IMG/VR virus record: IMGVR_UViG_3300027754_000037
Length of the DNA: 64,000 nucleotides
Reading direction: 5' to 3' (one strand)
DNA from: a virus
Taxonomy: Duplodnaviria > Caudoviricetes
Shown here one piece after another: positions 49,980-63,288 of this stretch. Within the stretch, counting starts at the first letter, position 1. Each line of letters begins with the position of its first letter. The translations under genes were made by a program, and so were the position numbers. The notes below the pieces were generated by a model. That model searched no databases. It was given only the letters and a program-made list of their open reading frames with translations, and was not told where the DNA came from.

Positions 49980-50282
49980 ATGATCCCTTCTTTCAAAAAA
50001 CTGTCAGAAAGTTTTGGCCCCCTGAAGGCGAAAATTGTGCGAAAGATAATGGAAAATTTCCATAATAGGGGCCGGTCGGGGTGTTACAAAACAATGGAGC
50101 AGATTGATGTTGTTCTGAATGGTCATGGAGTCGAATTCATCGATGCTGGGAAAGGCCGCAAAAGTCCCGCCATCACTTATGTGAACATGGGCGACACTTA
50201 CGATTGTACGGTCATGTGGGTAAATGGAAGTTTTAGAGTAGGGTGTTGGGGCGATATTGTAGAGCAGGGCAACTACGCCTGA
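49980..50282 (+). CDS. Conserved hypothetical phage protein
   Basis: AAGGAG RBS; G.GVE.I...Y.NMGDTY..T...WGD.VE pattern. Confidence 0.75.
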   Translation: MIPSFKKLSESFGPLKAKIVRKIMENFHNRGRSGCYKTMEQIDVVLNGHGVEFIDAGKGRKSPAITYVNMGDTYDCTVMWVNGSFRVGCWGDIVEQGNYA

Positions 50283-50302
50283 TTCCAAAAAAATTCCTGA
50301 AT

Positions 50303-50330
50303 TTAATTGTATTTTTCAGACGGAACTTCC
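50303..50330 (+). promoter_or_regulatory. Repeated early-promoter-like motif, copy 3
   Basis: TTAATTGTATTTTTCAGACGGAACTTCC. Confidence 0.85.
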
Positions 50331-50369
50331 GTATCACTTTGTAAGGGTCAAATAACGAAGGAGTTTGTA

Positions 50370-50639
50370 ATGAGCAATCGAGCATTTATCGAATCTGTAA
50401 CTGTAACAGACAATAAGACTAAAGAAGAAGGTTCTTTTATAAAGATTTATGACGATTATGGAACAGCTTATATCTCAGTAGAAAATGCTATAGATGATGA
50501 TTTTGCTATTTTGAAAGCAGCAACTTCATCGTTTGATGAGGTCGCCAAGGGCATTCTTGACCATGTTAATGAAATGGAAAAAGGATTGCACATATGTGGA
50601 ACATGGTACAACTGGGATGAAATTAAAGATATGTTCTAA
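50370..50639 (+). CDS. Hypothetical protein
   Basis: AAGGAG RBS before ATG 50370; acidic. Confidence 0.7.
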   Translation: MSNRAFIESVTVTDNKTKEEGSFIKIYDDYGTAYISVENAIDDDFAILKAATSSFDEVAKGILDHVNEMEKGLHICGTWYNWDEIKDMF

Positions 50640-50650
50640 AATTCCTGAAT

Positions 50651-50678
50651 TTAATTGTATTTTTGAAACGGAACTTCC
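50651..50678 (+). promoter_or_regulatory. Repeated early-promoter-like motif, copy 4
   Basis: TTAATTGTATTTTTGAAACGGAACTTCC. Confidence 0.85.
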
Positions 50679-50719
50679 GTATCACTTTGTAAGGTTCAAA
50701 TAAAGAAAAGGAAAAGATC

Positions 50720-51136
50720 ATGACCATCACTTTGACCGGAAAAAATGCAATCGAGTATATCAAGGCTGTCATTCGGCCACGGATGGACGAAAACATCCCC
50801 GGTTTGATGATTTTCGGAAACGAGGTTGACGGGGATGGCGTGGAAAATGCCACCCTTGGGCATGCCATCGATGCTGCCGACGAGGACGGCAGCTTGGTTT
50901 CTTACGGCTTAACGGAAAAAACCACCAATGCGGAATTTTTCACGATGGCCGAAACCGCAGCAGGTTCTTTTAGACTCGAAAAAATCGAAAAAGGAATCGC
51001 TAGCGTGACTTGGGATGCTGATCAAATAGATTGGCAGGAAATTATTCCACCAATGTTCCGGGGTCATGAAGAAGAAATAAAAGGATTGGCGGAACAATGC
51101 TACCAAAAATGGATGAAAGAGGATGAAGGAGTCTGA
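50720..51136 (+). CDS. Hypothetical acidic protein
   Basis: AAGGA RBS; follows motif copy 4. Confidence 0.7.
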   Translation: MTITLTGKNAIEYIKAVIRPRMDENIPGLMIFGNEVDGDGVENATLGHAIDAADEDGSLVSYGLTEKTTNAEFFTMAETAAGSFRLEKIEKGIASVTWDADQIDWQEIIPPMFRGHEEEIKGLAEQCYQKWMKEDEGV

Positions 51137-51152
51137 GTTTATCGCTATTCAC

Positions 51153-51193
51153 AAAGACTGACAGAGGAATAAACTCCTCTGTCAGTCTTTTTT
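51153..51193 (+). terminator. Rho-independent terminator
   Basis: AAAGACTGACAGAGG / CCTCTGTCAGTCTTT stem plus T tract. Confidence 0.85.
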
Positions 51194-51252
51194 TATTTGC
51201 ATTCTTTAGGGGAATTGTACCTACAGGATAAATGTCAAAAAAATTCCTGAAT

Positions 51253-51280
51253 TTAATTGTATTTTTGGAACGGAACTTCC
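51253..51280 (+). promoter_or_regulatory. Repeated early-promoter-like motif, copy 5
   Basis: TTAATTGTATTTTTGGAACGGAACTTCC. Confidence 0.85.
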
Positions 51281-51331
51281 GTATCACTTTGTCAGAAGCA
51301 ATTTACTAAGGTTTAAACAATAGGAGTGCCC

Positions 51332-51514
51332 ATGCTGGTTTCAAAAGATTATTACACCTGTGATGATGCTATGGTAGTAACCATAGAAGGAGTTTTTGAA
51401 GGCAAGGAAGCAGAATGGGATGGCTGCACTTCCCATACTGATAAGAGAATCGAATGGGAACAAGAGCCAGAAGATGGCTGGGTTTACAAAGATTTTAGTT
51501 TTCGAGCGAATTAG
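51332..51514 (+). CDS. Hypothetical small protein
   Basis: AGGAG RBS; follows motif copy 5. Confidence 0.65.
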   Translation: MLVSKDYYTCDDAMVVTIEGVFEGKEAEWDGCTSHTDKRIEWEQEPEDGWVYKDFSFRAN

Positions 51515-51757
51515 GAGCCTTGACGAATAAGGTTCAACCAACGAAAAGGAAAAGGAAAAGATCAATGAAAATTATCAGCAGTCATTTAACACGAGCATCT
51601 GCCCGTAATTCAGCAAAACGGGGCCAAAGGGTAATCAAGGCCGGGTTTTTCTCAAATGGATCATTCGGACTATTCAGTCCCGGCAATCATCATGGTGGTT
51701 TGGTTTTGATTCATGTTTGGCATGTTGTTTCAAACTAAGGTTCAATAAAAAGGAGTT

Positions 51758-52006
51758 ATGAACATGAAAGATTACGCCGCCGTAGTGGTGGAAGTTATGG
51801 CCGGAGCTTCGGCTGGAGAGGGTTGGGATGCCAACCGCTCATTCTGGGCCGATGAAGATGGGGCATGGGATGGCCTACAGGTTGGGGAACATGTGATGGT
51901 GGATGGGGAGTTATATGTAAAATACGGGGAGTGGGAGGAATACTCCTGTGGGGTCGATTGTTGTGGTTGGGCCAATTTTGGCCTAGCTAAAGTCACTTTC
52001 AAGTGA
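51758..52006 (+). CDS. Hypothetical acidic Trp-rich protein
   Basis: AAGGAG RBS. Confidence 0.65.
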   Translation: MNMKDYAAVVVEVMAGASAGEGWDANRSFWADEDGAWDGLQVGEHVMVDGELYVKYGEWEEYSCGVDCCGWANFGLAKVTFK

Positions 52007-52054
52007 CTCAATCCACTTCTTGGGATTTCAAAAAGTTAAAAAGAGGAATTCGCA

Positions 52055-52462
52055 ATGATCAAGGGATTGGCTTATACATGCGCTCCGATTCTTGGCCTTA
52101 AAGAAGCCAAGGATCGGAAGAAAGTGCTAGATGATTATCGAAAACTGGGACAGGAGGAGGCCGAGTTGCTCCTGACCCAGCGTCTTGATGATTTGGAATA
52201 TATTGATCTTGGCAACAACGAGGGGTTGCCTGCCGATGATTGGATGATTGCTCAGATCGGCGGTGGTGACGGCAAGGTTGTCTTGCACCCTTATACATAC
52301 AATGAGGAAAGTCCAATGATGGACGATTACCTAAAGCCTGAAAAAAGCTACACCACCCAAGGCGACCCCGTTTGGGTATGCAAAGGTTTTGCCTTGGAGA
52401 TCCACGAGGCAGAACTAAGGCGCATTCACCCGTGGTTGAAAGCAATCAATATCATCAAATAG
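52055..52462 (+). CDS. Hypothetical protein
   Basis: GAGG RBS; followed by terminator. Confidence 0.7.
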   Translation: MIKGLAYTCAPILGLKEAKDRKKVLDDYRKLGQEEAELLLTQRLDDLEYIDLGNNEGLPADDWMIAQIGGGDGKVVLHPYTYNEESPMMDDYLKPEKSYTTQGDPVWVCKGFALEIHEAELRRIHPWLKAINIIK

Positions 52463-52465
52463 CAG

Positions 52466-52494
52466 GAGGGGGCTTCGGCCCCCTCTTTTTTTTT
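52466..52494 (+). terminator. Rho-independent terminator (UUCG tetraloop)
   Basis: GAGGGGGC-TTCG-GCCCCCTC-T9. Confidence 0.92.
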
Positions 52495-52546
52495 GGCAAT
52501 TTTAGCTCCTTTCAATAATATTGATCCATAGATACATGCTGTACTT

Positions 52547-52879
52547 TCAACGATCCTCCTGCTTTGCCCGCACACAGTACCTCAGATGGAAAAAGTTGTT
52601 GCCAGTAGGGTGCAAATCCATGCCAAATTCCTGCAATCCGTAAAGTTTATACACATAGGTCTTGGCATCAGTTCGCTCCAGTTCTGCCTTGATTTGTTCA
52701 AGATTGCCAAACTTACTTGTCGTGCATTGAGCCGGTTGACCATCCTCATCCATGAATGTTGCTTCTTGGACAATACGAAACTTAGCGTCAATCAGCGACA
52801 ACGGTAACTCTTGTTTGGACTGAATGGTTTTTTGAGCCGCCAGAAACGCTCTTTGCTCGATGTTTGTTGTTTCACTCAT
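52547..52879 (-). CDS. Hypothetical protein
   Basis: 110 aa, GAGG RBS on minus strand; only clear minus-strand gene of the right-hand module. Confidence 0.6.
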   Translation of the reverse strand: MSETTNIEQRAFLAAQKTIQSKQELPLSLIDAKFRIVQEATFMDEDGQPAQCTTSKFGNLEQIKAELERTDAKTYVYKLYGLQEFGMDLHPTGNNFFHLRYCVRAKQEDR

Positions 52880-53066
52880 ATTGCAACATCCTCTTTGGTT
52901 TCGCTAAAATTTTTAAACCTTATAAACTGTACTATACCAGCAAGTACAGCCTTCAACAATTTTTTATCCTGTAGGTACAATTTGTCTAAAACTTCTGAAA
53001 GTTTTCGAGATACTCTAAATTATTTCGTGTTAGATTGTAGATAATTGCAATAACGAAATTAGGAGT

Positions 53067-53738
53067 ATGTCCATGAGAAATTTTAGTGAATGGCTAAGTG
53101 ATTTTTCAGAAGTAAGTGATATTAAAATATGTGAATCCAGTTTAACCCGCATGATGTCCCTTCAGAATTCCCCTTGGTGCATCATTACAGCATACCGCAA
53201 GAAGAATTCTGACGGTACAGTTAGAAACAGAGATCAGAACATCGCTGCCAACAGGGTTCTTCGTGGAAAGTTGAACAGCATGAAGATGGGAGTACATCAG
53301 TTGATTGGGCATTGGCGTGAGTGTAAGGACAGCAATATTCCATACCCTCAATGTCCTGAAGAGATGAAAGTCGATGTAATTGAGCGGTCTTACTTTGTGG
53401 CGAAACCCCCAGAAGTGGAAATTGAAGATTTTGAAACGCTTATGCTTCAACTGTGCCGTGAATTTAACCAAGATGGAGTTTTGCTGAGTGATGGGCAATC
53501 CGTCAAGCTTGCCTATCCAAGCGGTGAAAAGGATGTAATTGGCAGCAGCAATATGGCATTGAACAAGGTTGCTCAGGCTTATAGTCAGCACATCATGAAG
53601 CAGAATGTTCCATTTGTGTTTGAAGGGTTTCAACAATTTCATGGGAATGCTGCACGGCAAGGTTCTTCCAAGAGCGGGCTAACCCTTCCACCCTTGGATG
53701 AGAACTTTGTTGTCCTTGCCGCAAAACAATTAAACTAG
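53067..53738 (+). CDS. Putative internal head protein (ESSL.R...IITAYR family)
   Basis: MRNFSEWL N-terminus; ESSLTR, IITAYR, N..ANR.L..KL, G.W.E, QDGVL. Confidence 0.7.
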   Translation: MSMRNFSEWLSDFSEVSDIKICESSLTRMMSLQNSPWCIITAYRKKNSDGTVRNRDQNIAANRVLRGKLNSMKMGVHQLIGHWRECKDSNIPYPQCPEEMKVDVIERSYFVAKPPEVEIEDFETLMLQLCREFNQDGVLLSDGQSVKLAYPSGEKDVIGSSNMALNKVAQAYSQHIMKQNVPFVFEGFQQFHGNAARQGSSKSGLTLPPLDENFVVLAAKQLN

Positions 53739-53762
53739 CATTTATAAATTCTTAAATCCTTA

Positions 53763-53799
53763 AACCAGCGGGAGTTATGACTCTCGTTGGTTTTTTTTT
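53763..53799 (+). terminator. Rho-independent terminator
   Basis: AACCAGCGGGAG / CTCTCGTTGGTT stem plus T tract. Confidence 0.8.
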
Positions 53800-53804
53800 G
53801 GAAT

Positions 53805-53832
53805 TTAATTGTATTTTTCAAACAAAACTTCC
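53805..53832 (+). promoter_or_regulatory. Repeated early-promoter-like motif, copy 6
   Basis: TTAATTGTATTTTTCAAACAAAACTTCC. Confidence 0.85.
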
Positions 53833-53871
53833 TGTAGCACTATAGGTTCCATTACTTTGGAGGAAGTTTCC

Positions 53872-54186
53872 ATGAAATGTCAATGGTGCGTAAAGGCTCC
53901 CGCCGAAAAGGCCGCTGGCGAGTTGTCTGTTTGTAGCAATTGTTACAAGAACATTCAACAGTACCACAAATGTAATGTTTGTGGTTGTGAGATTGATGCA
54001 GACCTTGCGAGGTTTCGTCGCAAGCGTTTTGAAACTGGCACTTGCCTGAGCGCAAGTTGCTCCCGCAAGGAATTGATTGCGAGGGGCAGCGTTTGTTGCG
54101 AGCGGGCGAAGTTGCGTAACTGCTCCTGCGCTCGTAGTTTAGAGTGTGATCGGCATGGCATCCGTTGTACCGGAACCCACAACTAA
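53872..54186 (+). CDS. Cys-rich multi-zinc-finger protein
   Basis: GGAGG RBS; three CxxC pairs plus Cx4C, CC, CxC and CxxHxxxC in 104 aa. Confidence 0.7.
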   Translation: MKCQWCVKAPAEKAAGELSVCSNCYKNIQQYHKCNVCGCEIDADLARFRRKRFETGTCLSASCSRKELIARGSVCCERAKLRNCSCARSLECDRHGIRCTGTHN

Positions 54187-54196
54187 GGAGTATTCA

Positions 54197-54595
54197 ATGA
54201 ACCTGCAAATTTCCAATCGAAAGTTAGCTGTTGCTCGTAAGTCTCAAATTTTGGCTTTGGCCAAGGCTGGCAAGCCTCGTCCCAACAGCAAGGATTCCGC
54301 CCTAGGAAAGGCATTGAGGAAATACATCACCAATGGCAGCACCAGCTATGATGGTGAATTCAAGAAAGAAGTTTTGCGGGTTGCCCCAGAGGGATGGTTC
54401 CGCAACGAGGCGGAAAAAAAGAAGGCGAAGCTGGTTAAGATGGCTAAGGCTGGAAAGCCTCGTCCAAGCTTTTCCACTTCTTTGGGTAAGGCATTGAAGT
54501 TTTACACTTCCCATTCCCATACCGCTTACTGTAAAGAAACCACCTTGGAGTTGTTATCAATAGCTCCACATTGGTTTCGACGGGCAGTAATTTGA
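54197..54595 (+). CDS. Basic protein with two tandem AKAGKPRP...LGKAL..Y...AP.WF repeats
   Basis: AAGGAG RBS; internal duplication visible. Confidence 0.75.
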   Translation: MNLQISNRKLAVARKSQILALAKAGKPRPNSKDSALGKALRKYITNGSTSYDGEFKKEVLRVAPEGWFRNEAEKKKAKLVKMAKAGKPRPSFSTSLGKALKFYTSHSHTAYCKETTLELLSIAPHWFRRAVI

Positions 54596-54598
54596 TGC

Positions 54599-54621
54599 AA
54601 GTCCTTTTATTGTAAGGACTT
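54599..54621. promoter_or_regulatory. Dyad site AAGTCCTT-N7-AAGGACTT (copy 2)
   Basis: AAGTCCTT-ttattgt-AAGGACTT, 24 nt before motif copy 7. Confidence 0.55.
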
Positions 54622-54645
54622 AAAAATTACAATAAATTACTGAAT

Positions 54646-54673
54646 TTAATTGTATTTTTCAAACGAAACTTCC
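54646..54673 (+). promoter_or_regulatory. Repeated early-promoter-like motif, copy 7
   Basis: TTAATTGTATTTTTCAAACGAAACTTCC. Confidence 0.85.
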
Positions 54674-54717
54674 AGTATCACTTTGGAGAGACAGTTTTAA
54701 CCAGTAAGGAGACTGCA

Positions 54718-55272
54718 ATGTCTGACTACACATCTGCCCCAGCATGTCAACTCCTCGCAACGCATTGCTGCGTTTGCGGGCGACCCCTAGTTGACGCAAT
54801 TAGCGTCAGCTTGGGTATCGGCCCTGAGTGCAGGGGCGGGGCCAATGGCGGGATCACTTCCGAGCAGCAGGAAGCTGCAAACAAAATCACCTTCCTTGCT
54901 GCAATTGCAGCGCAGGAGGGGAAGATTGAGGAGGTGCGGGGTCATGCCGATGCCTTGCGGGTGCTGGGACTCAGCGTTTTGGCAGAAAAGGTGGCCGAGA
55001 GGTTCACCAAAGCCGAAAGGCAGGCCAAAATCTCCATCGTTGAGGATGGCGATATCCTCAAGGTGGACACCCCTTTCCGCCGTGGCGATAAGGATGCCTT
55101 TATTGCGGCATGGAGGGGCATTCCCGGTCGCCGTTACAAGAACGGGGCCAACTTGATCCCCAAGTCTGAAAAGCAGGCCTTGTATGGCCTGCTCCAGCAG
55201 TTCTTCCCCGGCCAGTATGCTGTGGGGCCGAAGGGGGTTTTCCGAATTCCCAAGCCAGAAGTCGAGGCCTAA
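54718..55272 (+). CDS. DUF6011-like zinc-finger protein
   Basis: CCVCGRPLVDA.S...GIGPEC; AAGGAG RBS. Confidence 0.75.
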   Translation: MSDYTSAPACQLLATHCCVCGRPLVDAISVSLGIGPECRGGANGGITSEQQEAANKITFLAAIAAQEGKIEEVRGHADALRVLGLSVLAEKVAERFTKAERQAKISIVEDGDILKVDTPFRRGDKDAFIAAWRGIPGRRYKNGANLIPKSEKQALYGLLQQFFPGQYAVGPKGVFRIPKPEVEA

Positions 55273-55281
55273 GCCTCACTC

Positions 55282-55310
55282 AGCCCCCTAGGCAACTAGG
55301 GGGCTTTTTT
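55282..55310 (+). terminator. Rho-independent terminator
   Basis: AGCCCCCTAG-GCAA-CTAGGGGGCT-TTTTT. Confidence 0.9.
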
Positions 55311-55349
55311 ATTTGTGCAGGACATTTTTTTTAACATGGGAGGTCAATT

Positions 55350-55625
55350 ATGGCTAAGAAATACAAGTTGATCTGCAAGCTGACCCGTCCTGTTGTAACG
55401 AACGAGGGCGATTTCATACCTGCTGGCACCCCTTGTGAGGTGCTGCGTTGGGATAAAACAGAAAACGGTAAGATCGAGGTCCGCACCAAGGCGTATATGT
55501 ACGCTGACGATCTTGGCGAGGATCGTAATGGGCCTGTTCCCGTTGTAAACACGGGATTGATCATAGCGGTCGATCCGATTGACCTTGAGTACAAGGATTC
55601 TTTTTCAATCAATTCTGTGGAGTAA
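55350..55625 (+). CDS. Hypothetical protein
   Basis: GGAGG RBS. Confidence 0.7.
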   Translation: MAKKYKLICKLTRPVVTNEGDFIPAGTPCEVLRWDKTENGKIEVRTKAYMYADDLGEDRNGPVPVVNTGLIIAVDPIDLEYKDSFSINSVE

Positions 55626-55865
55626 CTGAGATGAAAATGAAAGTCGATGCTGACAAGGTTATTGATCTTTACCCCTTTCCGCCGTGGCGATAAGGATGCC
55701 TTCATTGCTGCGTGGAGAGGAATTCCCGGTCGCCGTTACAAGAACGGGGCCAACTTGATCCCTAGAACTGAGAAGCAGGCCTTGTATGGCCTGCTCCAGC
55801 AATTCTTCCCCGGCCAGTATGCTGTGGGGCCGAAAGGGGTTTTCCGAATTCCCAAGCCGGAATAA
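55619..55865 (+). pseudogene. Out-of-frame chimera of the 55974 gene 5' end and the 54718 gene 3' end
   Basis: 55619-55670 matches 55962-56013 (5 mismatches in 52 nt); 55671-55862 matches 55069-55260; ATG 55631 hits TAA after 20 codons. Confidence 0.8.
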
Positions 55866-55885
55866 ATTCCAAAATATTCCTGAAT

Positions 55886-55913
55886 TTAATTGTATTTTTG
55901 AAACGGAACTTCC
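55886..55913 (+). promoter_or_regulatory. Repeated early-promoter-like motif, copy 8
   Basis: TTAATTGTATTTTTGAAACGGAACTTCC. Confidence 0.85.
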
Positions 55914-55973
55914 GTATCACTATGAAGGGAGCCACTAGAGAGCTACCTTCAAGGACACCTTGGAGCAACTGAG

Positions 55974-56204
55974 ATGAAAATGAAAGTTGATGCCAGCAAG
56001 GTTATTGATCTTTTGGTTGCTGCCTACAGGGAGCGACTTGAGGACGATGGCGATCTTGTTGCCGATGAGTTGGGCGAAAACTGGCCCAACGAGATCGAGC
56101 GGGTCGAATATGATCCCGCAAAAGACGAAATCAAATTCATCCCATCTGAGGAAGGACTTGAAACCCTTCCCCAATCCTTTGTTCGCCAACTCAAGGAGAT
56201 TTGA
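55974..56204 (+). CDS. Hypothetical acidic protein
   Basis: GGAG RBS; 76 aa. Confidence 0.7.
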   Translation: MKMKVDASKVIDLLVAAYRERLEDDGDLVADELGENWPNEIERVEYDPAKDEIKFIPSEEGLETLPQSFVRQLKEI

Positions 56205-56205
56205 T

Positions 56206-56757
56206 ATGAAATTGCGAATTGGAAGTGCTTCCCCTTGGGGCAGAATTCACCATCTAAAGGAAGTTGCGGAGGGCATATTGAAGGCTTCAACGGCATCTCA
56301 CGGGGGGATTAAGCTTTCCTCCGGCCGGAATCGTCAAATGCCCGCAGCATTCAAGGTTGCGGGAGGGTGGTACGAGGAGGATTGCGAGGCATCGAAGGTT
56401 ATCGCAGTTTTTCATGAACACTTCGACCCAAAGGAGGTGGATTATGCGGTTGGAGGCCTCAAGAATTGGTATCCAGTTGAGTACGAACTGTGGTCCGGCA
56501 ACAAAGTTGCCTTGGAGGAATCGCTTGTTCTTCAGGAGAAACGATTCCTTGAAGTAAACTATGACAAGTTTCTTGTGTGTGCTGCTTGGGGAGACTGGCG
56601 GACGAATGTTCCCAAGGGCATGGTTGGGGTGCAGGCCCGCCTGAATAATGCGACTGGAACTGATAAGTATTTCTTGGTGCCAGCCGAAGAGTACGCCAAC
56701 AGGCAGCACCAGTTTGTGATCGACATAGATCGTCACAAAGAAATAGATTCTATCTGA
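56206..56757 (+). CDS. DUF7007-like protein
   Basis: SPWG, STASHGGIKLS, WYEEDCE, WGDW...VP.G, YFLVP..EY; AAGGAG RBS. Confidence 0.75.
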   Translation: MKLRIGSASPWGRIHHLKEVAEGILKASTASHGGIKLSSGRNRQMPAAFKVAGGWYEEDCEASKVIAVFHEHFDPKEVDYAVGGLKNWYPVEYELWSGNKVALEESLVLQEKRFLEVNYDKFLVCAAWGDWRTNVPKGMVGVQARLNNATGTDKYFLVPAEEYANRQHQFVIDIDRHKEIDSI

Positions 56758-56782
56758 AGATAGATTCTGCCAGAGATATGCC

Positions 56783-56812
56783 AGAGGGATGCAACAGCAT
56801 CCCTCTTTTTTT
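56783..56812 (+). terminator. Rho-independent terminator
   Basis: AGAGGGATGC-AACA-GCATCCCTCT plus T tract. Confidence 0.85.
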
Positions 56813-56890
56813 TGTCCAGAATTTAGACTGATTGTACCTACAGGCCCCCTTGCGGGAAAGTAAGGAAAATATTTTAAAAAATTCTGCAAT

Positions 56891-56918
56891 TTAATTGTAT
56901 TTTTAAAACGGAACTTCC
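56891..56918 (+). promoter_or_regulatory. Repeated early-promoter-like motif, copy 9 (drives 56957-E2-JAB)
   Basis: TTAATTGTATTTTTAAAACGGAACTTCC. Confidence 0.85.
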
Positions 56919-56956
56919 TGTAAAGCTTTGTCAGAAGTAATCTAAAGGAGTAACCC

Positions 56957-57763
56957 ATGCGTCAAGCATTGTTTTTGCTGGCAGATGAGATCAGCAAGGC
57001 TGTTCTCAAGCAGTCTTACAAGAACATCCCTGACCAGATCAAGGCTGGGATGTTATTGCATGAGCAGAAACCATTTTACAACAAGAATGTGGGTCTGACC
57101 CACCTTGTTGTTGTGGCTATCCTGCACCAAATTTTTCATGAAAGGGGTGTAAAGTACAAATCTAGTGAGGTGCTGGAATTACCAGCAGTCAGGAACGCCT
57201 TGCTGGTAAAACATACCTTCAAGACTGCTGAAGGTAAACTGTTTTTTGCGGGCGGGATGTCTACCTTCACCCCTGACCCCATTGATGCACTTGCTGGAAA
57301 CATATTGAATTTTTTCGTGGAGAATGGTTGCCATAACTGTGGTTATGGCACCATCAAGACCGAGGATGACTTGGTTTGTCCCGTCTGTCTTGATGGAGAA
57401 GTCCGCAAGAAAATGTTGGCAGTATATGGGTCTTCTTTTGCTGATGAATCTTGGCATATCCTGAGTGAAGCGATTGGTCCAGATTGTAGCGAGATGCTTC
57501 TGGATTTATCATCTTTCACTCACAAGTATCAAACAAGTAAGCACTTTCTGAAAGCGGTGACAGCTTTGATGTTCAAGGATGAGGATCACGATGTTGATCC
57601 TCAATCTGAGGGGCTGTTGGAAGAAGAGTTTGGCACTTTCATCAGCGCCGATCTTGAAAAGCTTCTTGACATTCCTTTCCCGATGGGGACCGCCAAGCAA
57701 ATCCTCGAGCAGGTGGACGAGTCGTACGACGATGACTTGGGTTTTAAAGGCAACGACGAATAA
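56957..57763 (+). CDS. Hypothetical protein with central Zn ribbon, first gene of the Ubl-conjugation operon
   Basis: AAGGAG RBS; CHNC-x11-CPVC; acidic C-terminus. Confidence 0.7.
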   Translation: MRQALFLLADEISKAVLKQSYKNIPDQIKAGMLLHEQKPFYNKNVGLTHLVVVAILHQIFHERGVKYKSSEVLELPAVRNALLVKHTFKTAEGKLFFAGGMSTFTPDPIDALAGNILNFFVENGCHNCGYGTIKTEDDLVCPVCLDGEVRKKMLAVYGSSFADESWHILSEAIGPDCSEMLLDLSSFTHKYQTSKHFLKAVTALMFKDEDHDVDPQSEGLLEEEFGTFISADLEKLLDIPFPMGTAKQILEQVDESYDDDLGFKGNDE

Positions 57764-57794
57764 TTTTTCTAAACGCAAGAAAAGGAGTGCAACC

Positions 57795-59237
57795 ATGAGT
57801 TCAAGTGAAGTTGTTGACAAAGTCGTCAAAAGGATGCAATGGCAAGAAGATCGGCAGATGATGTCGATTCTTGATGCAATCACGGAAGGAACCGTGAGAG
57901 GTATCAGAGAAAGCCTGAAGGTTACTGTTGAGGAACAGACCGCTGGAGCGGTTCAGGCATTTGTCTCTGACACTAGTGTGCGTCTCATTGATGTGGCAAC
58001 TTCTTGGACTAACGAGCAGTCCAAGAAGTTGATTGTATTTCCTGTTGGCACACGCTATGTGCAGAGGGATGATAAGAGTACCAACATCGTCATTGAGGAA
58101 GCGCCTCGTTGCAGACGGGTCGCTTTCAATGACCGAAATGGTGATGTCAAGCATTATTATGTTTCCTTGCCATACATCCAGTATGTCATCACCTTTAGTA
58201 AACACGGGCGTGGTGAAAAGTTTCGGCAGATGAAAATCAGTTGTAGCAAGCAACCAATCGATTCATTGACATCGATTGTTTATGATCTTCCTTTGCCGAA
58301 CATGGGTTATGGAAACCGCTTTGGTGTATGTACTGGAGGCAGTTCAAGTGGCATGGAATTGCCTGAAGGGAGCGATGCTTTCACCGAGAAGTGTGAAACG
58401 CTGATCACTAGTTTTTGGAGCAGCGAGTTCAACACCGATCTCAGTTCCAATTTGGTGAGCTTCTTTCAGAAGAATTTTGGCTACGATACTCTGGAGGGGC
58501 AGCACCCTATTCAGCGTATTCACAATTGCTTCAGCAATTGGGCAGAGGTTTCCAAGCAGCACCCAATGTGGTCTTTGGGTGCTGATGTGAAATTGCCACA
58601 GGAGGCAGGGTGGCAGCTTGGTAGGCTCATCGATAGCGACTTGACCAGTCGTGGCAGCAAGGCAGCGATGACTCGCAACCTGAAACAACAGGTTACCGAG
58701 GGGTTGTTTGCCTTGTCTACTAATGCTGTCGATGCCATGCGGACTCTTTCCATCGAGGAACAGGGTCAGCTTTTGGCCAACAAGCAGAAGTTGGCTGAGT
58801 GTTATCGTAGCAATCTTCATTCCGCCTATTCGGTTCTTGAAGCCGAGACTATGGCTGGCTTTGAGGAATTCAAGTTGAAGGAGTTGGAGAAGGTTCAACA
58901 GGATCGTCGCAAGGTCGATGAGATGGTGCGAAAGATCGCTGAGGACCGTCAGAAGTTTGATTTAGAGATGCTCAAGACCAAGATTGAGCTTTCTGCTGTC
59001 CACAAATTTTTGGAGGCTGAAAAGGTCAAGGTTGCGCTAATACAGGCGCAGGCAGAGGAGATCATTGCTCGTGGTGTTGTTGCTATTGAGCCTGTAGTCA
59101 AGCGTGGTCGTGGTCGGCCTCGCAAGGAAAAGCCTCCTGTTCCTCTGGGACCGGATGGCCAACCCATCAATCGGGGTCGTGGTCGGCCCCGCAAGACCCC
59201 GATTGTTCTTCGTCACGCATCACTTATGAGGAGCTAA
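57795..59237 (+). CDS. Prokaryotic E2 (family D / PRTRC protein B-like) fused to coiled coil and two AT-hooks
   Basis: AAGGAG RBS; LPLPN.....GVCTG (putative catalytic Cys), FWSSEFNTDL; heptad region; GRGRPRK twice. Confidence 0.82.
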   Translation: MSSSEVVDKVVKRMQWQEDRQMMSILDAITEGTVRGIRESLKVTVEEQTAGAVQAFVSDTSVRLIDVATSWTNEQSKKLIVFPVGTRYVQRDDKSTNIVIEEAPRCRRVAFNDRNGDVKHYYVSLPYIQYVITFSKHGRGEKFRQMKISCSKQPIDSLTSIVYDLPLPNMGYGNRFGVCTGGSSSGMELPEGSDAFTEKCETLITSFWSSEFNTDLSSNLVSFFQKNFGYDTLEGQHPIQRIHNCFSNWAEVSKQHPMWSLGADVKLPQEAGWQLGRLIDSDLTSRGSKAAMTRNLKQQVTEGLFALSTNAVDAMRTLSIEEQGQLLANKQKLAECYRSNLHSAYSVLEAETMAGFEEFKLKELEKVQQDRRKVDEMVRKIAEDRQKFDLEMLKTKIELSAVHKFLEAEKVKVALIQAQAEEIIARGVVAIEPVVKRGRGRPRKEKPPVPLGPDGQPINRGRGRPRKTPIVLRHASLMRS

Positions 59238-59238
59238 G

Positions 59239-60264
59239 ATGATTAATTTTCCCGTGTTCCTGAATATTCCCGGCACCAAGCTGCCTGAAACCGGAATCTA
59301 CTATGTGGTTGCCAAGGACGGCATCTACATGAGGACAGACAGGAACTTTGGAAGTGCATTGGTCAAGGTTGAAGAAATTCCTCACCTTGCTGCTGCTCCC
59401 ACTCAAGCAAGTTTCAACCTTCCCAAGATTCCAGCAACGATCATTGGGCAGGCATTGATGTTCTTCCGTGAAGTGTTCGTTGAGTACAAAACGGAGAGCT
59501 ATTTGACCCTTCTGTATTCCAAGAAATTGGGTCAGTATCGTCTGTGGTGCCCCAAACAGGAAGTCAGCTACAGTTCTGTCAGCTATGACAGAACTGACAG
59601 CGTTCCTGTCGAGGAGCGGAATTACATGGGTAGCGATGGTCCCGGCTGGCAAAATGTGGGGACTATTCACTCCCATTGTGACTTCTCAGCTTTCCACAGC
59701 GGTACGGATGAGTTTGATGAATCCACCTTTGATGGAATTCACATCACCCTTGGCCATGTGAACCGCAATGATTTCAGCATTGTGGCTAGCATTGCCATCA
59801 ACGACAACCGCTTCCCGAAGGCGATTGCCGATGTGTGTGATGGTGTGCCCAACACTTCTTCCGAAGTTGTTGAGGAAGAGGGAGATGGTCCATTCAAAGG
59901 TCAGATATTCAAGCGTCAAGAGTTGTACCACCGTCTTGCGCTGAACGACGAGCAGCAGGCATGGTTGGAAAACGAATTGGAGATAACCATCCGAAATGAA
60001 TGGTTGCCCAAGGTCACTAGAAAGATCTCGAGACACCCCAAGGGAATTAGTCGCCTTGGACTGAGCGTGGAAGAGGTAGAGTGTGAGGAGTTCGAGTTCG
60101 ATGGACTGGAGCAGGGCTTGTTCCCTGACTCCGGTCCAAGGATCGAAGATGGAATATATGTTGATGAAGATGAGATATCATTTGATCCTACTGAACGGCA
60201 ACTCCGTAGTTTTGGATATCGTCGTGATGAACATGGTTTCAAGTATCGGCATGAAGGTGATTAG
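59239..60264 (+). CDS. JAB/MPN+ (JAMM) metallopeptidase, deubiquitinase-like
   Basis: HSHCDFSAFHSGTD equals H-x-H-x7-S-x2-D; YYVVAKDG.Y N-terminus as in PRTRC protein A; starts 1 nt after E2 stop. Confidence 0.9.
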   Translation: MINFPVFLNIPGTKLPETGIYYVVAKDGIYMRTDRNFGSALVKVEEIPHLAAAPTQASFNLPKIPATIIGQALMFFREVFVEYKTESYLTLLYSKKLGQYRLWCPKQEVSYSSVSYDRTDSVPVEERNYMGSDGPGWQNVGTIHSHCDFSAFHSGTDEFDESTFDGIHITLGHVNRNDFSIVASIAINDNRFPKAIADVCDGVPNTSSEVVEEEGDGPFKGQIFKRQELYHRLALNDEQQAWLENELEITIRNEWLPKVTRKISRHPKGISRLGLSVEEVECEEFEFDGLEQGLFPDSGPRIEDGIYVDEDEISFDPTERQLRSFGYRRDEHGFKYRHEGD

Positions 60265-60284
60265 TTCGGAAAATATTTTTTGAG

Positions 60285-60312
60285 TTAATTGTATTTTTGA
60301 AACGAAACTTCC
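60285..60312 (+). promoter_or_regulatory. Repeated early-promoter-like motif, copy 10 (drives E1-Ubl)
   Basis: TTAATTGTATTTTTGAAACGAAACTTCC. Confidence 0.85.
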
Positions 60313-60335
60313 TGTAGTCCTTTGTGGAGGTGTTA

Positions 60336-61073
60336 ATGGCAAACAACATCAAGGTGATTGGTGCTGGTGGCATAGGACTGTGCGTGTTGCCGGTCCTATG
60401 CCGGTTTTTAAACTTCGAGGACGAGACTTTTCCCGAACCTGTTCTCACCGTGGTTGACGGCGACCAGTACGAGGAGAATAATCGTGCTCGTCAAGAGTTC
60501 GAGGATTGTGGCCCCAAGTCAACCATCACGGTTGAGAGGTTGAGGGGTCAATTTCCTCGAATTGAGTTTAGAGACAAGTCCGAGTTCGTTGATGATGCGA
60601 ATGTCGGATTGATTGTCCGTGAAGGAGATGTGGTTTTACTCTGTGTGGACAACCACAAGAGTAGGAAGATCGTGAGTGATCGTGCTTGTCAGTTGCGCAA
60701 TGTCACCGTGATTAGTGGTGGTAATGACCGGACTGACGGCAATGTGCTCATCCACATTCGTCGTGGCGGGGTTGACTTGACCCCGCCATTGGCGAGTCAC
60801 TACCATCCCGAGATCAGTAATCCTACTGATCTCCATCCTCATGAGCACAATCAGCCGGGGAGTTGTTCCCGGCTTGCTGAGGAAGTTCCTCAGTTGGTGA
60901 TCATGAATAATCTAATCGCTGCAAAAATGCTTGCAGCTTTTTACACTCTCACCGATCCCGTGTTATATTCGGAACAGGTGGAAAAAAAACCGCATCGATA
61001 TGCGGAGGTGCTGTGTGATCTCAGCACTTTGACTAGTGTAGTTCGTGACCGGCATGTAAAAAGAGGAGCATGA
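60336..61073 (+). CDS. ThiF/E1 ubiquitin-like activating enzyme
   Basis: IGAGGIG, VDGD..E.NN..RQ, LCVDN, SGGN, PGSC putative catalytic Cys; GGAGG RBS. Confidence 0.92.
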   Translation: MANNIKVIGAGGIGLCVLPVLCRFLNFEDETFPEPVLTVVDGDQYEENNRARQEFEDCGPKSTITVERLRGQFPRIEFRDKSEFVDDANVGLIVREGDVVLLCVDNHKSRKIVSDRACQLRNVTVISGGNDRTDGNVLIHIRRGGVDLTPPLASHYHPEISNPTDLHPHEHNQPGSCSRLAEEVPQLVIMNNLIAAKMLAAFYTLTDPVLYSEQVEKKPHRYAEVLCDLSTLTSVVRDRHVKRGA

Positions 61074-61381
61074 AAATGAGCGACCAAAATCAGAACCCCA
61101 CCAATGGTTTTGCCAACAGCCCTGATGCCCAGAGTGTCGATGTTCTAGGTGTGTTGAGCGGGTTACAGGCAAGCAACTGCAAGGTTGTTCACGGTGCTGC
61201 CGAGGGCATCCACCCAGTTGCCCTAAATAGCGTGAGTGCTGTTCGTGGGACATTTTCGGTGGCATACAACATCCCCGCTGACGCTTTGTCCTTTGTGGAT
61301 GGAGTTTCGGTTGCGGAAGATTACATCCTCCAGCCTAACGAAACGCTGGAGTTCATCAAGCAGGCGGGCGTGAAGGGTTAA
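61070..61381 (+). CDS. Ubiquitin-like (beta-grasp) modifier with terminal Gly
   Basis: ATGA-coupled to E1; NIP.DA..FVDG..V..DYILQPNETLEFIKQAGVKG-stop. Confidence 0.85.
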   Translation: MKMSDQNQNPTNGFANSPDAQSVDVLGVLSGLQASNCKVVHGAAEGIHPVALNSVSAVRGTFSVAYNIPADALSFVDGVSVAEDYILQPNETLEFIKQAGVKG

Positions 61382-61405
61382 TCGCCCTTCGCCCGTTCTC
61401 TCTGC

Positions 61406-61441
61406 CCCCGCAAGGCCCACAAAGCCTTGCGGGGGTTTTTT
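61406..61441 (+). terminator. Rho-independent terminator closing the Ubl operon
   Basis: CCCCGCAAGGC / GCCTTGCGGGG perfect 11-bp stem plus T tract. Confidence 0.9.
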
Positions 61442-61492
61442 ATGTCGGGACCAAACTGCAAGCCTCAGAAAAATTCTAGAAAAAAATTGAAT

Positions 61493-61520
61493 TTAATTGT
61501 ATTTTTGAAACAGAACTTCC
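61493..61520 (+). promoter_or_regulatory. Repeated early-promoter-like motif, copy 11
   Basis: TTAATTGTATTTTTGAAACAGAACTTCC. Confidence 0.85.
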
Positions 61521-61559
61521 TTATCACTTTGTATAGAGTTAAACAAAAGGAGGTGAGCC

Positions 61560-61898
61560 ATGACCAGTTCAGATCGCACTCCCAGCTACATTATCAAGGC
61601 TGTCCGTGCAGGGGCCAAAAAGGACAAAATTCTCGCCACCTATGCCGATGGGAGCACCGTGCTAGTGGTCAAGTCGGGAGGCAGCAAGTATGACCGGTTG
61701 GCAATTTACGGTCTATGTTCTAGGTGTCCTGAGTGGATTACAGGCACGGGCAAGAAAGGCTACTACTTCTGCCGCCTTGGGCCGAGCAGGAGCGTCAAGC
61801 TCCTTGATGGCGGGTTCAGTTGGAGTTACCCCAAGCCCGGTAAATTCGAGGGCTACCCGCTGGTCGGCTTGGTCACCATCGAAGATACCGCAGAATAG
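61560..61898 (+). CDS. Hypothetical protein
   Basis: AGGAGG RBS. Confidence 0.7.
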   Translation: MTSSDRTPSYIIKAVRAGAKKDKILATYADGSTVLVVKSGGSKYDRLAIYGLCSRCPEWITGTGKKGYYFCRLGPSRSVKLLDGGFSWSYPKPGKFEGYPLVGLVTIEDTAE

Positions 61899-61931
61899 AT
61901 ACCGATGTACGCTAAACAAGGGAGCAACACC

Positions 61932-62483
61932 ATGACCATTGCATTCAACTCTTTCGTGCGTCGTCAGACGGCAGAATCTCCTTTCTCTCACTTCTCTCGT
62001 TGGACTTTGTCCGATGAGAAGGTTTTAGAAATGGTCCAAGCCAACTTGGAAAAGGCCAAGAAGGGCTACAGGGACGGGGTGATTTTGGTCCCTGTGGCCC
62101 CTGAAGGGTTCTTCTCCAGCGTCATCCAGCTTCAAGCTGGTGACAAGCTGCATGGCGAGTTCAAAGCCCGCCGTGATGGGGAAGAGCCCCGCAAAACTCT
62201 CCACGCCAATGGGCAGAAGATCGCTGCCCAGAGTGTGGATGTTGTCCTCTACAGCAAAGAGGTGCTGGCTGAGGGCAAGGAAAACAGCACGGATGCTGAT
62301 TGGGAAATAGTCAGCTTCAATGCTAGTCCAGAAGTTGGTGAGATGCCGATCCAACCTGACACATTAATCGCTAACCACTTCCAGTTAAGTGGTGGAACGG
62401 CGACGAACATGAGTGACTCCGAATTCGTGGAGGCTCTCAAACAGTCTGTCCTGTATTGGAAGGACAAGGCTTTGGTTGGTTGA
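61932..62483 (+). CDS. DUF3228-like protein
   Basis: F.RRQ...S.FSH, GYRDGV.LVP, ARR.GEEP, MPI.P.T...NHF..SGGT. Confidence 0.75.
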   Translation: MTIAFNSFVRRQTAESPFSHFSRWTLSDEKVLEMVQANLEKAKKGYRDGVILVPVAPEGFFSSVIQLQAGDKLHGEFKARRDGEEPRKTLHANGQKIAAQSVDVVLYSKEVLAEGKENSTDADWEIVSFNASPEVGEMPIQPDTLIANHFQLSGGTATNMSDSEFVEALKQSVLYWKDKALVG

Positions 62484-62504
62484 TTTCAACAAGGAGGAAA
62501 TCTG

Positions 62505-62696
62505 ATGCTTCACCGCATGGATAATGGTGACATTTTGAATGTCAGTCACATCGTTAGCATCACCTTGAGTGGCGACTTCACAGTAGTTGCCTTGGTCAAC
62601 TCTCAAGAGTTTCATTACCGTGGCGACATTCGCAGCAAGTTGTTGATGGACTTCAACATCGTTCTAACCTCTCATGACAAAAGGAGTCAAATATGA
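62505..62696 (+). CDS. Hypothetical small protein
   Basis: AGGAGG RBS. Confidence 0.6.
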   Translation: MLHRMDNGDILNVSHIVSITLSGDFTVVALVNSQEFHYRGDIRSKLLMDFNIVLTSHDKRSQI

Positions 62697-62914
62697 AAAT
62701 TGCACATGTGAGCTTCTCCAACTGGGGAGGCGTGGTGGAAGCCATGCTTATCCCCAAGGATGAGGAGGCAAGGGTCAAGTGGGTACGAATCCCCACAAAG
62801 CGGGTCAAGCACCCACACCGCAAGGCTCTGCGTTGGCTTGCGGCAAACCACCCACAGGCTAGCCATAGTTACCATGTGGAAACAGGTGCGTGTGGCCCCT
62901 GCGAGTACAACTGA
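62693..62914 (+). CDS. Hypothetical small protein
   Basis: AAGGAG RBS; ATGA-coupled. Confidence 0.6.
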   Translation: MKIAHVSFSNWGGVVEAMLIPKDEEARVKWVRIPTKRVKHPHRKALRWLAANHPQASHSYHVETGACGPCEYN

Positions 62915-62972
62915 GAAAAGGTGGAGATTTTTGTTGATTTATCGTCCCAGATCGTGTTAAGGTAAGTTTGTC

Positions 62973-63165
62973 GCAGGGTGTCTGGGGGGTTGTAACTAAA
63001 CCCCTGTTGTAGTTGTGAGGTTTTTTCTTTTCCCTCTTACGATAAAAGCCTATAGGGATAAGCTCCTCCCTATCACCAGATATACATGGAAAAGCTTTTA
63101 TACCAACTGAATCAGAACAGGAATCGGTTCTGATGCTACAACAACAGCCCCTGCAACCTTTTTTT
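62973..63165 (+). ncRNA. Candidate structured non-coding RNA (strand uncertain)
   Basis: Nested helices 62973-78/63149-54, 62986-91/62999-63004, 63005-13/63135-43, 63052-58/63067-73, 63111-18/63127-34, then T7. Confidence 0.4.
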
Positions 63166-63191
63166 CACCAAAAGTCAAAAAACTTTTGCGT

Positions 63192-63219
63192 GTAATTGTA
63201 TTTAAGTCACAAAACTTCC
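63192..63219 (+). promoter_or_regulatory. Repeated early-promoter-like motif, degenerate copy 12
   Basis: GTAATTGTATTTAAGTCACAAAACTTCC. Confidence 0.6.
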
Positions 63220-63288
63220 GATTAGACATTAGGCAACCTGCACTTTGCAAGTTGCCTAATGTCTAATTTTAATCTTAAGGAGTTTCTC

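Follow-up and report, generated by a model that had tools for sequence, protein, structure and literature searches.

The first 64 kb of the 144,066-bp IMG/VR record IMGVR_UViG_3300027754_000037, a stretch of 64,000 nucleotides from a virus of the Caudoviricetes that is referred to here as the window, carries at positions 56957-61381 a compact gene cassette that probably gives a phage its own pathway for conjugating a small ubiquitin-like (Ubl) protein to other proteins. The cassette consists of five co-directional genes on the + strand, arranged in two promoter-to-terminator-like units. In order, these genes encode a Zn-ribbon protein (open reading frame ORF268), a protein resembling ubiquitin-conjugating enzymes (E2), a peptidase of the JAMM/JAB type (JAB), a minimal activating enzyme of the ThiF type (E1) and a small protein ending in glycine, the putative Ubl tag. 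The genes and the elements that surround them are as follows (aa, amino acids; nt, nucleotides).

56877..56935 (core 56892-56918), + strand: promoter-like repeat, copy 9, heading the ORF268-E2-JAB unit
56957..57763, + strand: ORF268, 268 aa, Zn-ribbon protein of unknown family
57795..59237, + strand: E2-like protein, 480 aa; the start at 57795 was set by conservation among homologs
58002-58589, + strand: UBC-like core of the E2-like protein, about residues 70-265
58329-58331, + strand: candidate catalytic Cys179 of the E2-like protein
59100-59126 and 59169-59195, + strand: two AT-hooks of the E2-like protein
59239..60264, + strand: metallopeptidase of the JAB/JAMM type, 341 aa, PRTRC-A-like; its C-terminal extension is acidic
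60270..60329 (core 60286-60312), + strand: promoter-like repeat, copy 10, heading the E1-Ubl unit
60336..61073, + strand: E1 of the ThiF/MoeB type, minimal single domain, 245 aa
60864-60866, + strand: candidate catalytic Cys177 of the E1, in its GSC motif
61070..61381, + strand: Ubl tag, 103 aa, ending AGVKG-stop; codon of Gly103 at nt 61376-61378
61404..61446 (stem-loop to 61436), + strand: strong intrinsic terminator closing the E1-Ubl unit, with a 13-bp stem (10 G-C pairs), a 7-nt loop and a T run

The first block comprises repeat copy 9, ORF268, the E2-like gene and the JAB gene, and the second comprises repeat copy 10, the E1 gene, the tag gene and the terminator. Only 1 nt separates the E2 gene from the JAB gene, and the E1 and tag genes overlap by ATGA. 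An earlier note on the same DNA had described a cassette of four open reading frames, both halves of which were headed by the same repeat. The two repeat copies do lie at 56892 and 60286, and every motif and spacing that the note listed is in place, including the E2 motifs, the JAMM motif, the E1 motifs, the AGVKG end, the 1-nt gap, the ATGA overlap and the terminator. Its four open reading frames also stand, but the fifth gene of the first unit (56957-57763) had been missed.

Predicted activities and conserved residues

The E1 carries the motifs GAGGIG (GxGxxG, residues 9-14), DGD, NNRARQ and GSC, and it matches ThiF (PF00899) with 58.5 bits (7.2e-16), above the cut-off of 28.1. Its best NCBIfam match is PRTRC_ThiF (3.4e-13; 49.5 bits vs a cut-off of 144.75), followed by ThiF and MoeB, both below cut-off, and the sole solved relative found by sequence is MoeB (1jw9, 3.7e-6). 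Three cysteines of the protein, C16, C103 and C177, are invariant, and Cys177, which lies in the GSC motif, is a candidate for the E1~Ubl thioester.

The tag has no Pfam match of its own. Its beta-grasp-like core spans about residues 36-103, while residues 1-35 are probably disordered and include a conserved short helix motif. The best structural matches of the tag model are MoaD, ThiS, TtuB, SAMP and ubiquitin, with Z scores that reach 4.2 only. The nearest named cluster in the Atlas feature search is the ThiS family (0.93), and a relative of the tag matches TGS (2.6e-4) and ThiS-like. When two copies of the E1 were modelled in complex with tag residues 30-103, the complex scored 0.75 and the best of three controls scored 0.01; the mark applied to this score is reached by 58 of 80 solved complexes and by 2 of 110 mismatched pairs. 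Contacts agreed to at least 96% among runs, and the predicted local distance difference test score (pLDDT) of the partner was at least 88 (89 for the tag in the complex). In this model, tag residues 96-103 contact E1 residues 9, 11-14 (the Gly-rich loop), 103-107 and 127-131, which form the adenylation and nucleotide-binding site. It should be noted that complexes of the MoeB-MoaD type have been solved, so that passing the mark speaks for likeness to them, possibly through memory of them, and is not proof that this particular pair binds.

The C-terminal AGVKG of the tag is invariant among close homologs, and the family consensus ends in AG.KG. Of 52 distinct tags in the family, 38 stop at the glycine and 14 carry one to seven extra residues, as is seen in Ubl precursors whose ends have to be trimmed. 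Natural variants of the tag of this phage (L021, 10001-10318) also run seven residues beyond AGVKG, and strains carrying them would need C-terminal processing of the tag. Within the tag gene, a 36-nt segment (61136-61171) that encodes the VDVLGVLSGLQA motif of the N-terminal extension recurs with 86% identity at 61711-61746. This second copy belongs to the next unit, where it is out of frame with a 112-aa open reading frame and in frame with an overlapping one of 81 aa (61690-61935).

The JAMM motif of the JAB protein, HSHCDFSAFHSGTD, is complete (residues 144-157, nt 59668-59709). The metal-binding pattern E...HxH x7 S xx D corresponds to an upstream E86 together with H144, H146, S154 and D157, all of which are invariant in five homologs. 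The N-terminal part of the protein is homologous to PRTRC_A (35 bits vs a curated cut-off of 101.8; E 1e-8), and as judged from these scores the relation is one of homology and not that of an equivalog. The earlier note had considered the JAB to be a deconjugase rather than a maturation protease. This view proved too narrow, as the 14 extended family tags and the extended natural variant make a trimming role for the JAB also likely, and within the family the enzyme is probably both maturase and deconjugase.

The E2-like protein begins with a long N-terminal helix (65 residues), followed by the UBC-like core, a helical or coiled-coil region rich in E, K and Q, and the two AT-hooks. The core contains the signatures LPLPN...VCTG (residues 165-181) and FWSSEFN (residues 207-213). 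A family profile built from the N-terminal 300 residues and searched against 1.84 billion proteins retrieved at least 497 representative clusters at 50% identity, 120 of them at E <= 1e-10. In an alignment of 52 members with 20-38% identity, nine residues are invariant (P83, E101, R107, P126, C179, G181, W208, F212 and W249), and a W..S.FN.DL helix is conserved. Cys179, which lies ten residues past PLPN (166-169), is the only cysteine that is invariant in all 52 sequences, and this spacing accords with the UBC pattern of a catalytic cysteine shortly behind (H/L)PN. Prok-E2_D (PF14460) matches 23 of the 52 members at E <= 0.01, with a best value of 4.9e-9.

An AlphaFold (AF2) model computed from the family alignment (pLDDT 84.6; predicted template modelling score, pTM, 0.71) has a core composed of a sheet and helices. 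In the AlphaFold database (AFDB), this core matches two clusters named 'PRTRC system protein B' (6.2e-8 and 6.4e-6) and a cluster named 'UBC core domain-containing protein' (2.4e-5; template modelling (TM) score by hit 0.64). Superposition on UbcH7 gave a Z score of 5.1 and a root-mean-square deviation of 4.2 over 118 residues, and the comparisons with UbcH7, UBC9 and Cdc34 gave Z scores of 4.6-5.1 over 117-129 residues, all of which are weak or modest values. Nearly all of the candidates from the Protein Data Bank (PDB) that Foldseek returned for the core are UBC enzymes, a uniform set in spite of the weak Z scores. A wide VIA-align search with the model was dominated by the 65-residue N-terminal helix and is uninformative on the core. 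These sequence and model comparisons place the E2-like protein with the Prok-E2_D, PRTRC protein B and UBC folds. The searches with this protein also gave two negative results, in that tblastn against 50,697 GenBank phage records found no match and scanning IMG/VR for patterns of the E2 alone yielded no confirmed relative.

Both AT-hooks are canonical (K/N-RGRGRPRK). Relatives retain them at identities as low as about 25-36%, as do about 15 representative clusters of proteins of about 480 aa, and database proteins that match only the tail of the E2 carry the Pfam AT_hook. The AT-hooks should hold the E2 of this clade on AT-rich DNA.

The remaining gene of the first unit, ORF268, has no match in Pfam, NCBIfam, PHROG or PADLOC and no useful feature or structure match in the Atlas (TM about 0.3). 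Only four homologs occur among 5.8 billion proteins, each encoded directly upstream of an E2. Four cysteines (C125, C128, C141 and C144) are invariant in these four homologs, in the arrangement of a Zn-ribbon. The gene is found in none of 73 more distant cassettes, and it is possibly an accessory or specificity factor.

Profiles, fold models, the docking site and feature searches thus agree with the earlier note on the four protein classes, namely E2-like, JAB, E1 and beta-grasp-like tag. The comparisons show that the four predicted activities are encoded, that their putative catalytic residues are conserved and that the genes are locked together in phages.

Relatives and phage carriers of the cassette

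Two collections, IMG/VR and a set of 185,579 prokaryote species represented by a single genome each, were scanned with the E1 alignment as seed. These scans yielded 68 loci in IMG/VR, on contigs of up to 527 kb, and five in the species genomes, all of them on contigs of metagenome-assembled genomes (MAGs). This distribution bears out the claim of the earlier note that the cassette is not a stray host fragment. A search of the five MAG genomes for Terminase_6N gave one match, on another contig, which is uninformative as to whether phage DNA had been mis-binned. Purpose-built hidden Markov models applied to the 73 loci identified the E2 in 67, the JAB in 70, the E1 in 73 and the tag in 67, in the constant order E2-JAB-E1-Ubl, and the missing genes mostly fall at contig ends. 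The same gene order in 67 of 73 loci, combined with the invariant catalytic residues of the 52-member alignment, lies far beyond chance. The cassette also lies within viral contigs of 190-527 kb.

The closest relatives are metagenomic contigs only, and they keep the arrangement ORF267-E2-JAB-E1-Ubl. Compared with the 53%-identity relative (L014), the tag and the E1 are each 81% identical, the JAB 79%, the E2 56% and ORF268 37%. The enzymatic core is strongly constrained, and rapid change is concentrated in the E2 and ORF268, the candidates for facing the targets.

Several relatives depart from the four-gene plan in ways that concern the E2 and its neighbours. Three IMG/VR contigs (L029-L031; 340, 134 and 527 kb) carry two or three tandem E2 paralogs before one JAB-E1-Ubl set, which suggests several target specificities that share one activating enzyme. 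The E2s of some relatives reach 800-1200 aa. In one clade, comprising L032 and about 35 loci like it, the E2 has about 860 aa and the JAB about 530 aa, the latter with weak matches to Zn-ribbon and Prok-RING_1. Tags of the L032 type have about 155 aa and a weak N-terminal Rho_N-like domain of the nucleic-acid-binding kind (E 0.001), which may be another link to nucleic-acid binding. In a 239-kb relative (L024), a gene of the sigma-70 family (6514-7029) lies directly upstream of the E2 gene, with a slight overlap, and a CsrA-like gene follows the tag.

Related cassettes are also present in cultured phages. In Salmonella phage Arash (OQ632216.1, 176281-179301), the genes for gp248c (E2-like), gp247c (JAB) and gp246c (ThiF) occur in the same order. 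Aligned with the E2 family by hhalign, gp248c gave a probability of 72% (3.3e-5), with PFPN..C.G and FN.DL in register. The gp247c protein scores 31.8 bits with Prok-JAB, above the cut-off, and gp246c matches ThiF at 7.8e-15; the tag gene of Arash was not identified. Mass spectrometry of an Arash particle preparation detected gp246 and gp248 along with many enzymes, including ribonucleotide reductase and RNA polymerase, and the Arash paper mentions neither ThiF nor ubiquitin (PMC10585845). Two of the three genes bear the annotation 'structural protein' on the basis of mass spectrometry, and no Ubl pathway has been recognised in them.

In Bacillus phage vB_BceM_WH1, a JAB (gp215; hhalign 95% to the JAB alignment) adjoins a ThiF protein. 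Within its region gp213-gp218 a NADAR gene follows the JAB-ThiF pair, and the E2 and tag genes were not identified; gp213 was considered as the E2 and rejected, as hhalign shows an overlap of coiled coils only, with a probability of 0.5%. Acinetobacter phage ME3, like WH1 a jumbo phage with a JAB of this family, has genes annotated as 'PRTRC system protein A' and ThiF. This JAB-ThiF pair lies near a nucleotidyltransferase of the polymerase-beta type (region ME3_129-ME3_140), and E2 and tag genes were not identified there.

The record itself is part of a huge freshwater myophage. It encodes a baseplate hub (Phage_base_V), a wedge protein (phrog_219, 7.5e-29) and Tail_P2_I at 110-120 kb, and in a comparison of wedge proteins the nearest phage in GenBank is uncultured and 595 kb long (46% identity), so that the earlier claim of a viral contig is well founded. 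Further genes of the kind found in large phages include those for a collagen-like protein, an epimerase, glycosyltransferases, an ArdC-like antirestriction protein (4269-5300, ArdcN and MPTase-PolyVal), an RNA ligase of the PHA02142 type (22417-23409), a tRNA-Tyr, a SAM-lyase-like protein (53067-53738; PF23780, 5e-7; SAM, S-adenosylmethionine) and a nucleotidyltransferase of the CCA-adding type. None of the scanned open reading frames resembles a bacterial housekeeping gene, and most of the large ones have no Pfam match. IMG/VR labels the record 'provirus' and CheckV rates it 33% complete; no integrase was found in the record, and the label, though conceivably correct, is unsupported. DNA of the record recurs in freshwater and lake metagenomes from about 15 studies.

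The cassette also shares its regulatory elements with its surroundings. The promoter-like element that heads both units is about 45 nt long, with the core TAATTGTATTTTTGAAACGGAACTTCC, which contains the palindrome GGAAC/TTCC. The window contains 12 copies and the whole record 19, all of them on the + strand and confined to 48.6-74.5 kb of the record (48655-63236 in the window and 64515-74540 of the record beyond it). A start codon follows each copy at a distance of 44-137 nt. The copies mostly lie 3' of a terminator, and each precedes a unit of one to three genes that usually ends in a terminator. The SAM-lyase-like gene belongs to the same promoter module as the cassette. In a close relative (L013), the same element stands before the ORF267 homolog and before the E1. 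We infer that the repeated element functions as a promoter and that the cassette is expressed from two copies of it. A scan for the sigma-70 consensus did not score the copies; read as a sigma-70 promoter, the element would consist of TTGAAA, 17 nt and a variable T-rich hexamer, which is possible but weak. Given this poor match, a phage-specific factor may read the element. Positions 57727-57990 and 60352-60675, at the 5' ends of the E2 and E1 genes, have identical counterparts among the contigs of a lake metatranscriptome library, a weak hint that the cassette is expressed. The detection of the Arash homologs by mass spectrometry is another weak hint of this kind. Contigs from RNA libraries cover three short parts only, and the uncovered parts are not evidence of silence.

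Other repeats occur around the cassette. Positions 55069-55260 and 55671-55862 of the window form a 192-nt duplication with 93% identity, in which the C-terminal third of a DUF6011 protein (54718-55272) has been copied into a 72-aa open reading frame, and positions 55618-55670 and 55961-56013 form a 53-nt duplication with 91% identity. The two duplications resemble products of recombination between adjacent units headed by the promoter-like element. Upstream, directly before the first promoter copy and at a rise in G+C, the region 46859-48565 contains the tRNA-Tyr gene (46859-46943) followed by tandem repeats of 22 nt (47364-47473) and 11 nt (48497-48565). It may mark the border of a module, serve in regulation or be origin-like.

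Comparison with known systems

The best relatives of the cassette by sequence and fold are the PRTRC systems (ParB-related, ThiF-related cassette) of plasmids and integrative elements (NCBIfam TIGR03734-03742; PMC1779556). Clusters of Prok-E2_D, Prok-JAB, E1 and Prok_Ub genes were described by Iyer, Burroughs and Aravind in 2006 (PMC1779556). The likeness to PRTRC extends to carriage by mobile elements, a minimal single-domain E1 and a small, Gly-ended tag with a putative beta-grasp fold. However, the matches of the JAB to PRTRC_A and of the E1 to PRTRC_ThiF fall far under the curated cut-offs. PRTRC_B has no sequence match in the record, and only the fold model of the E2 matches AFDB clusters of that name. 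Nothing in the 144-kb record matches PRTRC_C at E <= 1, and the tag belongs to a different beta-grasp-like family. The cassette further differs from PRTRC in its gene order (E2-JAB-E1-Ubl), its 480-aa E2 with a coiled coil and AT-hooks, its huge-phage carrier and a lineage that is nearly confined to viral contigs. The earlier note had seen no ParB, PRTRC E/F or CD-NTase here, and this absence extends across the 144-kb record, in which, incomplete as it is, TIGR03734, TIGR03741 and TIGR03742 have no match, the neighbourhood of the cassette included. We know of no function for PRTRC.

The Bil systems, which consist of BilA (Ubl), BilB (E2), BilC (JAB) and BilD (E1), resemble the cassette in having four separate proteins, including a JAB, and no E3, so that the E2 would pick the target. 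They differ in the E1, as BilD is large and combines tandem adenylation domains, one inactive and one active, with a mobile Cys domain, unlike the 245-aa MoeB-like E1 found here. The Bil Ubl, moreover, is ISG15-like. Bil is also encoded by the host against phages, whereas this cassette is encoded by a phage. The PADLOC defence models match none of the E2, JAB, E1 or tag, apart from a spurious JetA match to the coiled-coil region of the E2.

The type II cyclic-oligonucleotide-based antiphage signalling system (CBASS), with Cap2 (an E2-E1 fusion) and Cap3 (JAB), shares the E1, E2 and JAB chemistry and the setting of a conflict between phage and bacterium. In contrast to CBASS, the E2 and E1 of the cassette are separate genes in separate transcription units, and a free Ubl would be conjugated in place of the C-terminus of an enzyme; the CD-NTase family SMODS is absent from the record. 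The only long-known phage pair of a Ubl and a JAB is TAPI and TAPK (JAB plus NlpC/P60) of lambda and T1, which lacks both E1 and E2, is encoded among the tail genes and carries out proteolytic processing only. Lastly, MoeB-MoaD and ThiF-ThiS resemble the cassette in the E1 fold and in the predicted entry of the tag tail into the nucleotide site, but they are sulfur carriers of housekeeping biosynthesis and have neither E2 nor JAB.

As judged from these sequence comparisons, the cassette is not PRTRC, Bil or CBASS but a phage lineage distantly related to PRTRC. The failed PRTRC counts, an E1 architecture other than that of Bil and the lack of a CD-NTase point to a known kind of system in a form specific to phages. 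A literature search that included jumbo-phage reviews and papers on bacterial ubiquitination found no description of a phage-encoded E1/E2/JAB/Ubl pathway, although most subscription journals lay outside its scope and absence is therefore not proven. New here are the size and strict synteny of the family, its near-restriction to viral contigs and the clade of E2s that bear AT-hooks.

Proposed pathway, alternatives and implications

We consider it probable, at roughly 0.6, that the cassette is a ubiquitin-like protein conjugation pathway owned by the phage. In this pathway, the E1 would bind the tag and adenylate its C-terminal Gly103, as homology and the docking model suggest. The tag would then probably pass as a thioester from Cys177 of the E1 to Cys179 of the E2, in keeping with the invariance of these residues, and the E2 would couple it to lysines of target proteins. 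The JAB would trim C-terminal extensions of tag precursors where these are present, and would reverse or edit conjugates. No E3 is recognisable, and targets are likely selected by the E2 itself, through its variable C-terminal part with the coiled-coil-like region and the AT-hooks, and maybe by ORF268 in this clade.

Our best guess is that the targets are DNA-associated host proteins, tagged in host takeover or counter-defence; AT-hooks that place the E2 on AT-rich DNA would favour such targets. The neighbouring genes, which include the SAM-lyase-like gene and many small promoter-driven genes, fit a takeover module. In its fullest form, this proposal holds that a phage-encoded writer and eraser with a DNA-anchored E2 tags host proteins that are bound to DNA, for example nucleoid-associated silencers or defence proteins that target DNA, thereby disabling or redirecting them, and that the system is spread over hundreds of large-phage lineages, cultured ones included. 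It would then be the prokaryotic-virus counterpart of the exploitation of ubiquitination by eukaryotic viruses. We offer this fuller version only tentatively, as it is distinctly less probable than the existence of the pathway.

Several observations weigh against a conjugation pathway of this kind. The pathway is a prediction from sequence and models, and its 'early' timing of expression and its targets are conjectural. RNA libraries, such as the one that contains parts of the E2 and E1 genes, can hold DNA. With the exception of ThiF, every named family fell short of its curated cut-off when the cassette proteins were compared with it, a point overlooked in the earlier note. For instance, Prok-E2_D matches the E2 alone with only 15.4-16.3 bits (E 0.016; gathering cut-off 25), and Prok-JAB (PF14464) matches the JAB with 20.2 bits (5.5e-4; cut-off 25), a threshold that is passed by relatives such as the L032 JAB (27.7 bits) and the Arash protein. 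Foldseek searches with the E2 model found nothing in the PDB at E <= 0.001, the UbcH7 rows having a probability of 0.44, and no meaningful match among the Swiss-Prot AlphaFold models, and a Z score of around 5 is weak for the E2 fold. The stand-alone AF2 model of the tag is poor (pLDDT 58). The E1 is of the MoeB/ThiF type, and such E1s serve sulfur transfer in cells. Lastly, most of the wider family lacks AT-hooks, with none among 65 E2s, which makes the predicted tethering to DNA a feature of this clade and not of the system.

Of the other explanations, the one that survives best, while still unlikely, is that the phage carries a Bil-like defence or exclusion system, which would place the tag on structural proteins of superinfecting rival phages and spoil their assembly. 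The Bil systems, the only characterised stand-alone bacterial E1/E2/JAB/Ubl systems, do exactly so (PMC11601596), phages often carry genes for defence against rivals, and the E2s of relatives differ widely in size and occur in places as two or three tandem paralogs, as in an arms race. However, the cassette matches no PADLOC defence model and its single-domain E1 is not of the BilD type. A train of promoter-driven small genes beside a SAM-lyase-like anti-restriction gene, in an apparently non-integrating phage, fits takeover better than defence by a lysogen, and the AT-hooks indicate targets bound to DNA rather than targets in virions.

Slightly less probable again is self-modification, in which the tag would be placed on the phage's own replication, packaging or virion proteins, or would serve as an assembly chaperone cleaved by the JAB, like TAPI and TAPK of lambda. 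Only one pairing of a Ubl with a JAB has long been known from phages, and it acts in tail assembly (PMC1779556); the Arash homologs are present in a virion preparation. That preparation, however, included ribonucleotide reductase and RNA polymerase, so that presence in it shows no structural role. The tail module (about 102-130 kb of the record) is distant from the cassette and belongs to another transcription module, and TAPI and TAPK need neither an E1 nor an E2.

We regard as improbable a role of the tag as a sulfur carrier, in which the E1 would make a thiocarboxylate of the tag that, in the manner of ThiS, MoaD or TtuB, donates sulfur to thio-modify a tRNA, DNA or a cofactor, with some other function for the 'E2'. 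Both the E1, which is nearest to MoeB and ThiF, and the tag, whose nearest named relatives are ThiS and MoaD, agree with this explanation. Yet the E1 has no rhodanese domain, and the cassette contains no sulfurtransferase and no partner of the ThiG or MoaE type. Moreover, an E2 with an invariant cysteine and a JAB are locked to the E1 and tag in 67 of the 73 loci, and sulfur transfer needs neither of them. Least credible of all is that a PRTRC-type cassette of a bacterial island, plasmid or integrative and conjugative element has been joined to phage DNA, since the provirus label, the low completeness, the change in G+C from about 0.35-0.42 to 0.43-0.50 at 48 kb and the presence of DUF6011, DUF7007 and ArdC-like genes, which also occur on plasmids, are set against the absence of integrase, ParB and PRTRC B/C/E/F, phage-type genes on both flanks (the RNA ligase, tRNA, collagen-like protein and baseplate), the occurrence of the cassette inside large viral contigs and its near-absence from the species genomes.

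The preferred explanation, a conjugation pathway owned by the phage, is open to direct experiment. The cassette is compact (four or five genes) and has clear catalytic residues to mutate, and the presence of related cassettes in the cultured phages Arash, vB_BceM_WH1 and ME3 makes the question directly testable. As the tag ends in K-G, trypsin would leave a single-Gly remnant on modified lysines. The AT-hook-bearing E2 in turn amounts to a specific and checkable prediction of the site of action.

To our knowledge, gene sets of this kind have been studied only in bacteria, where they form antiphage defences or plasmid cassettes, and bacterial Ubl conjugation has been shown to work only recently, and only as host defence (CBASS Cap2 and Bil). 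If phages run a conjugation pathway of their own, protein tagging would be a weapon on both sides of the conflict between phages and bacteria. If this is true, the large and functionally uncharacterised PRTRC and Prok-E2_D group would gain an experimental handle.

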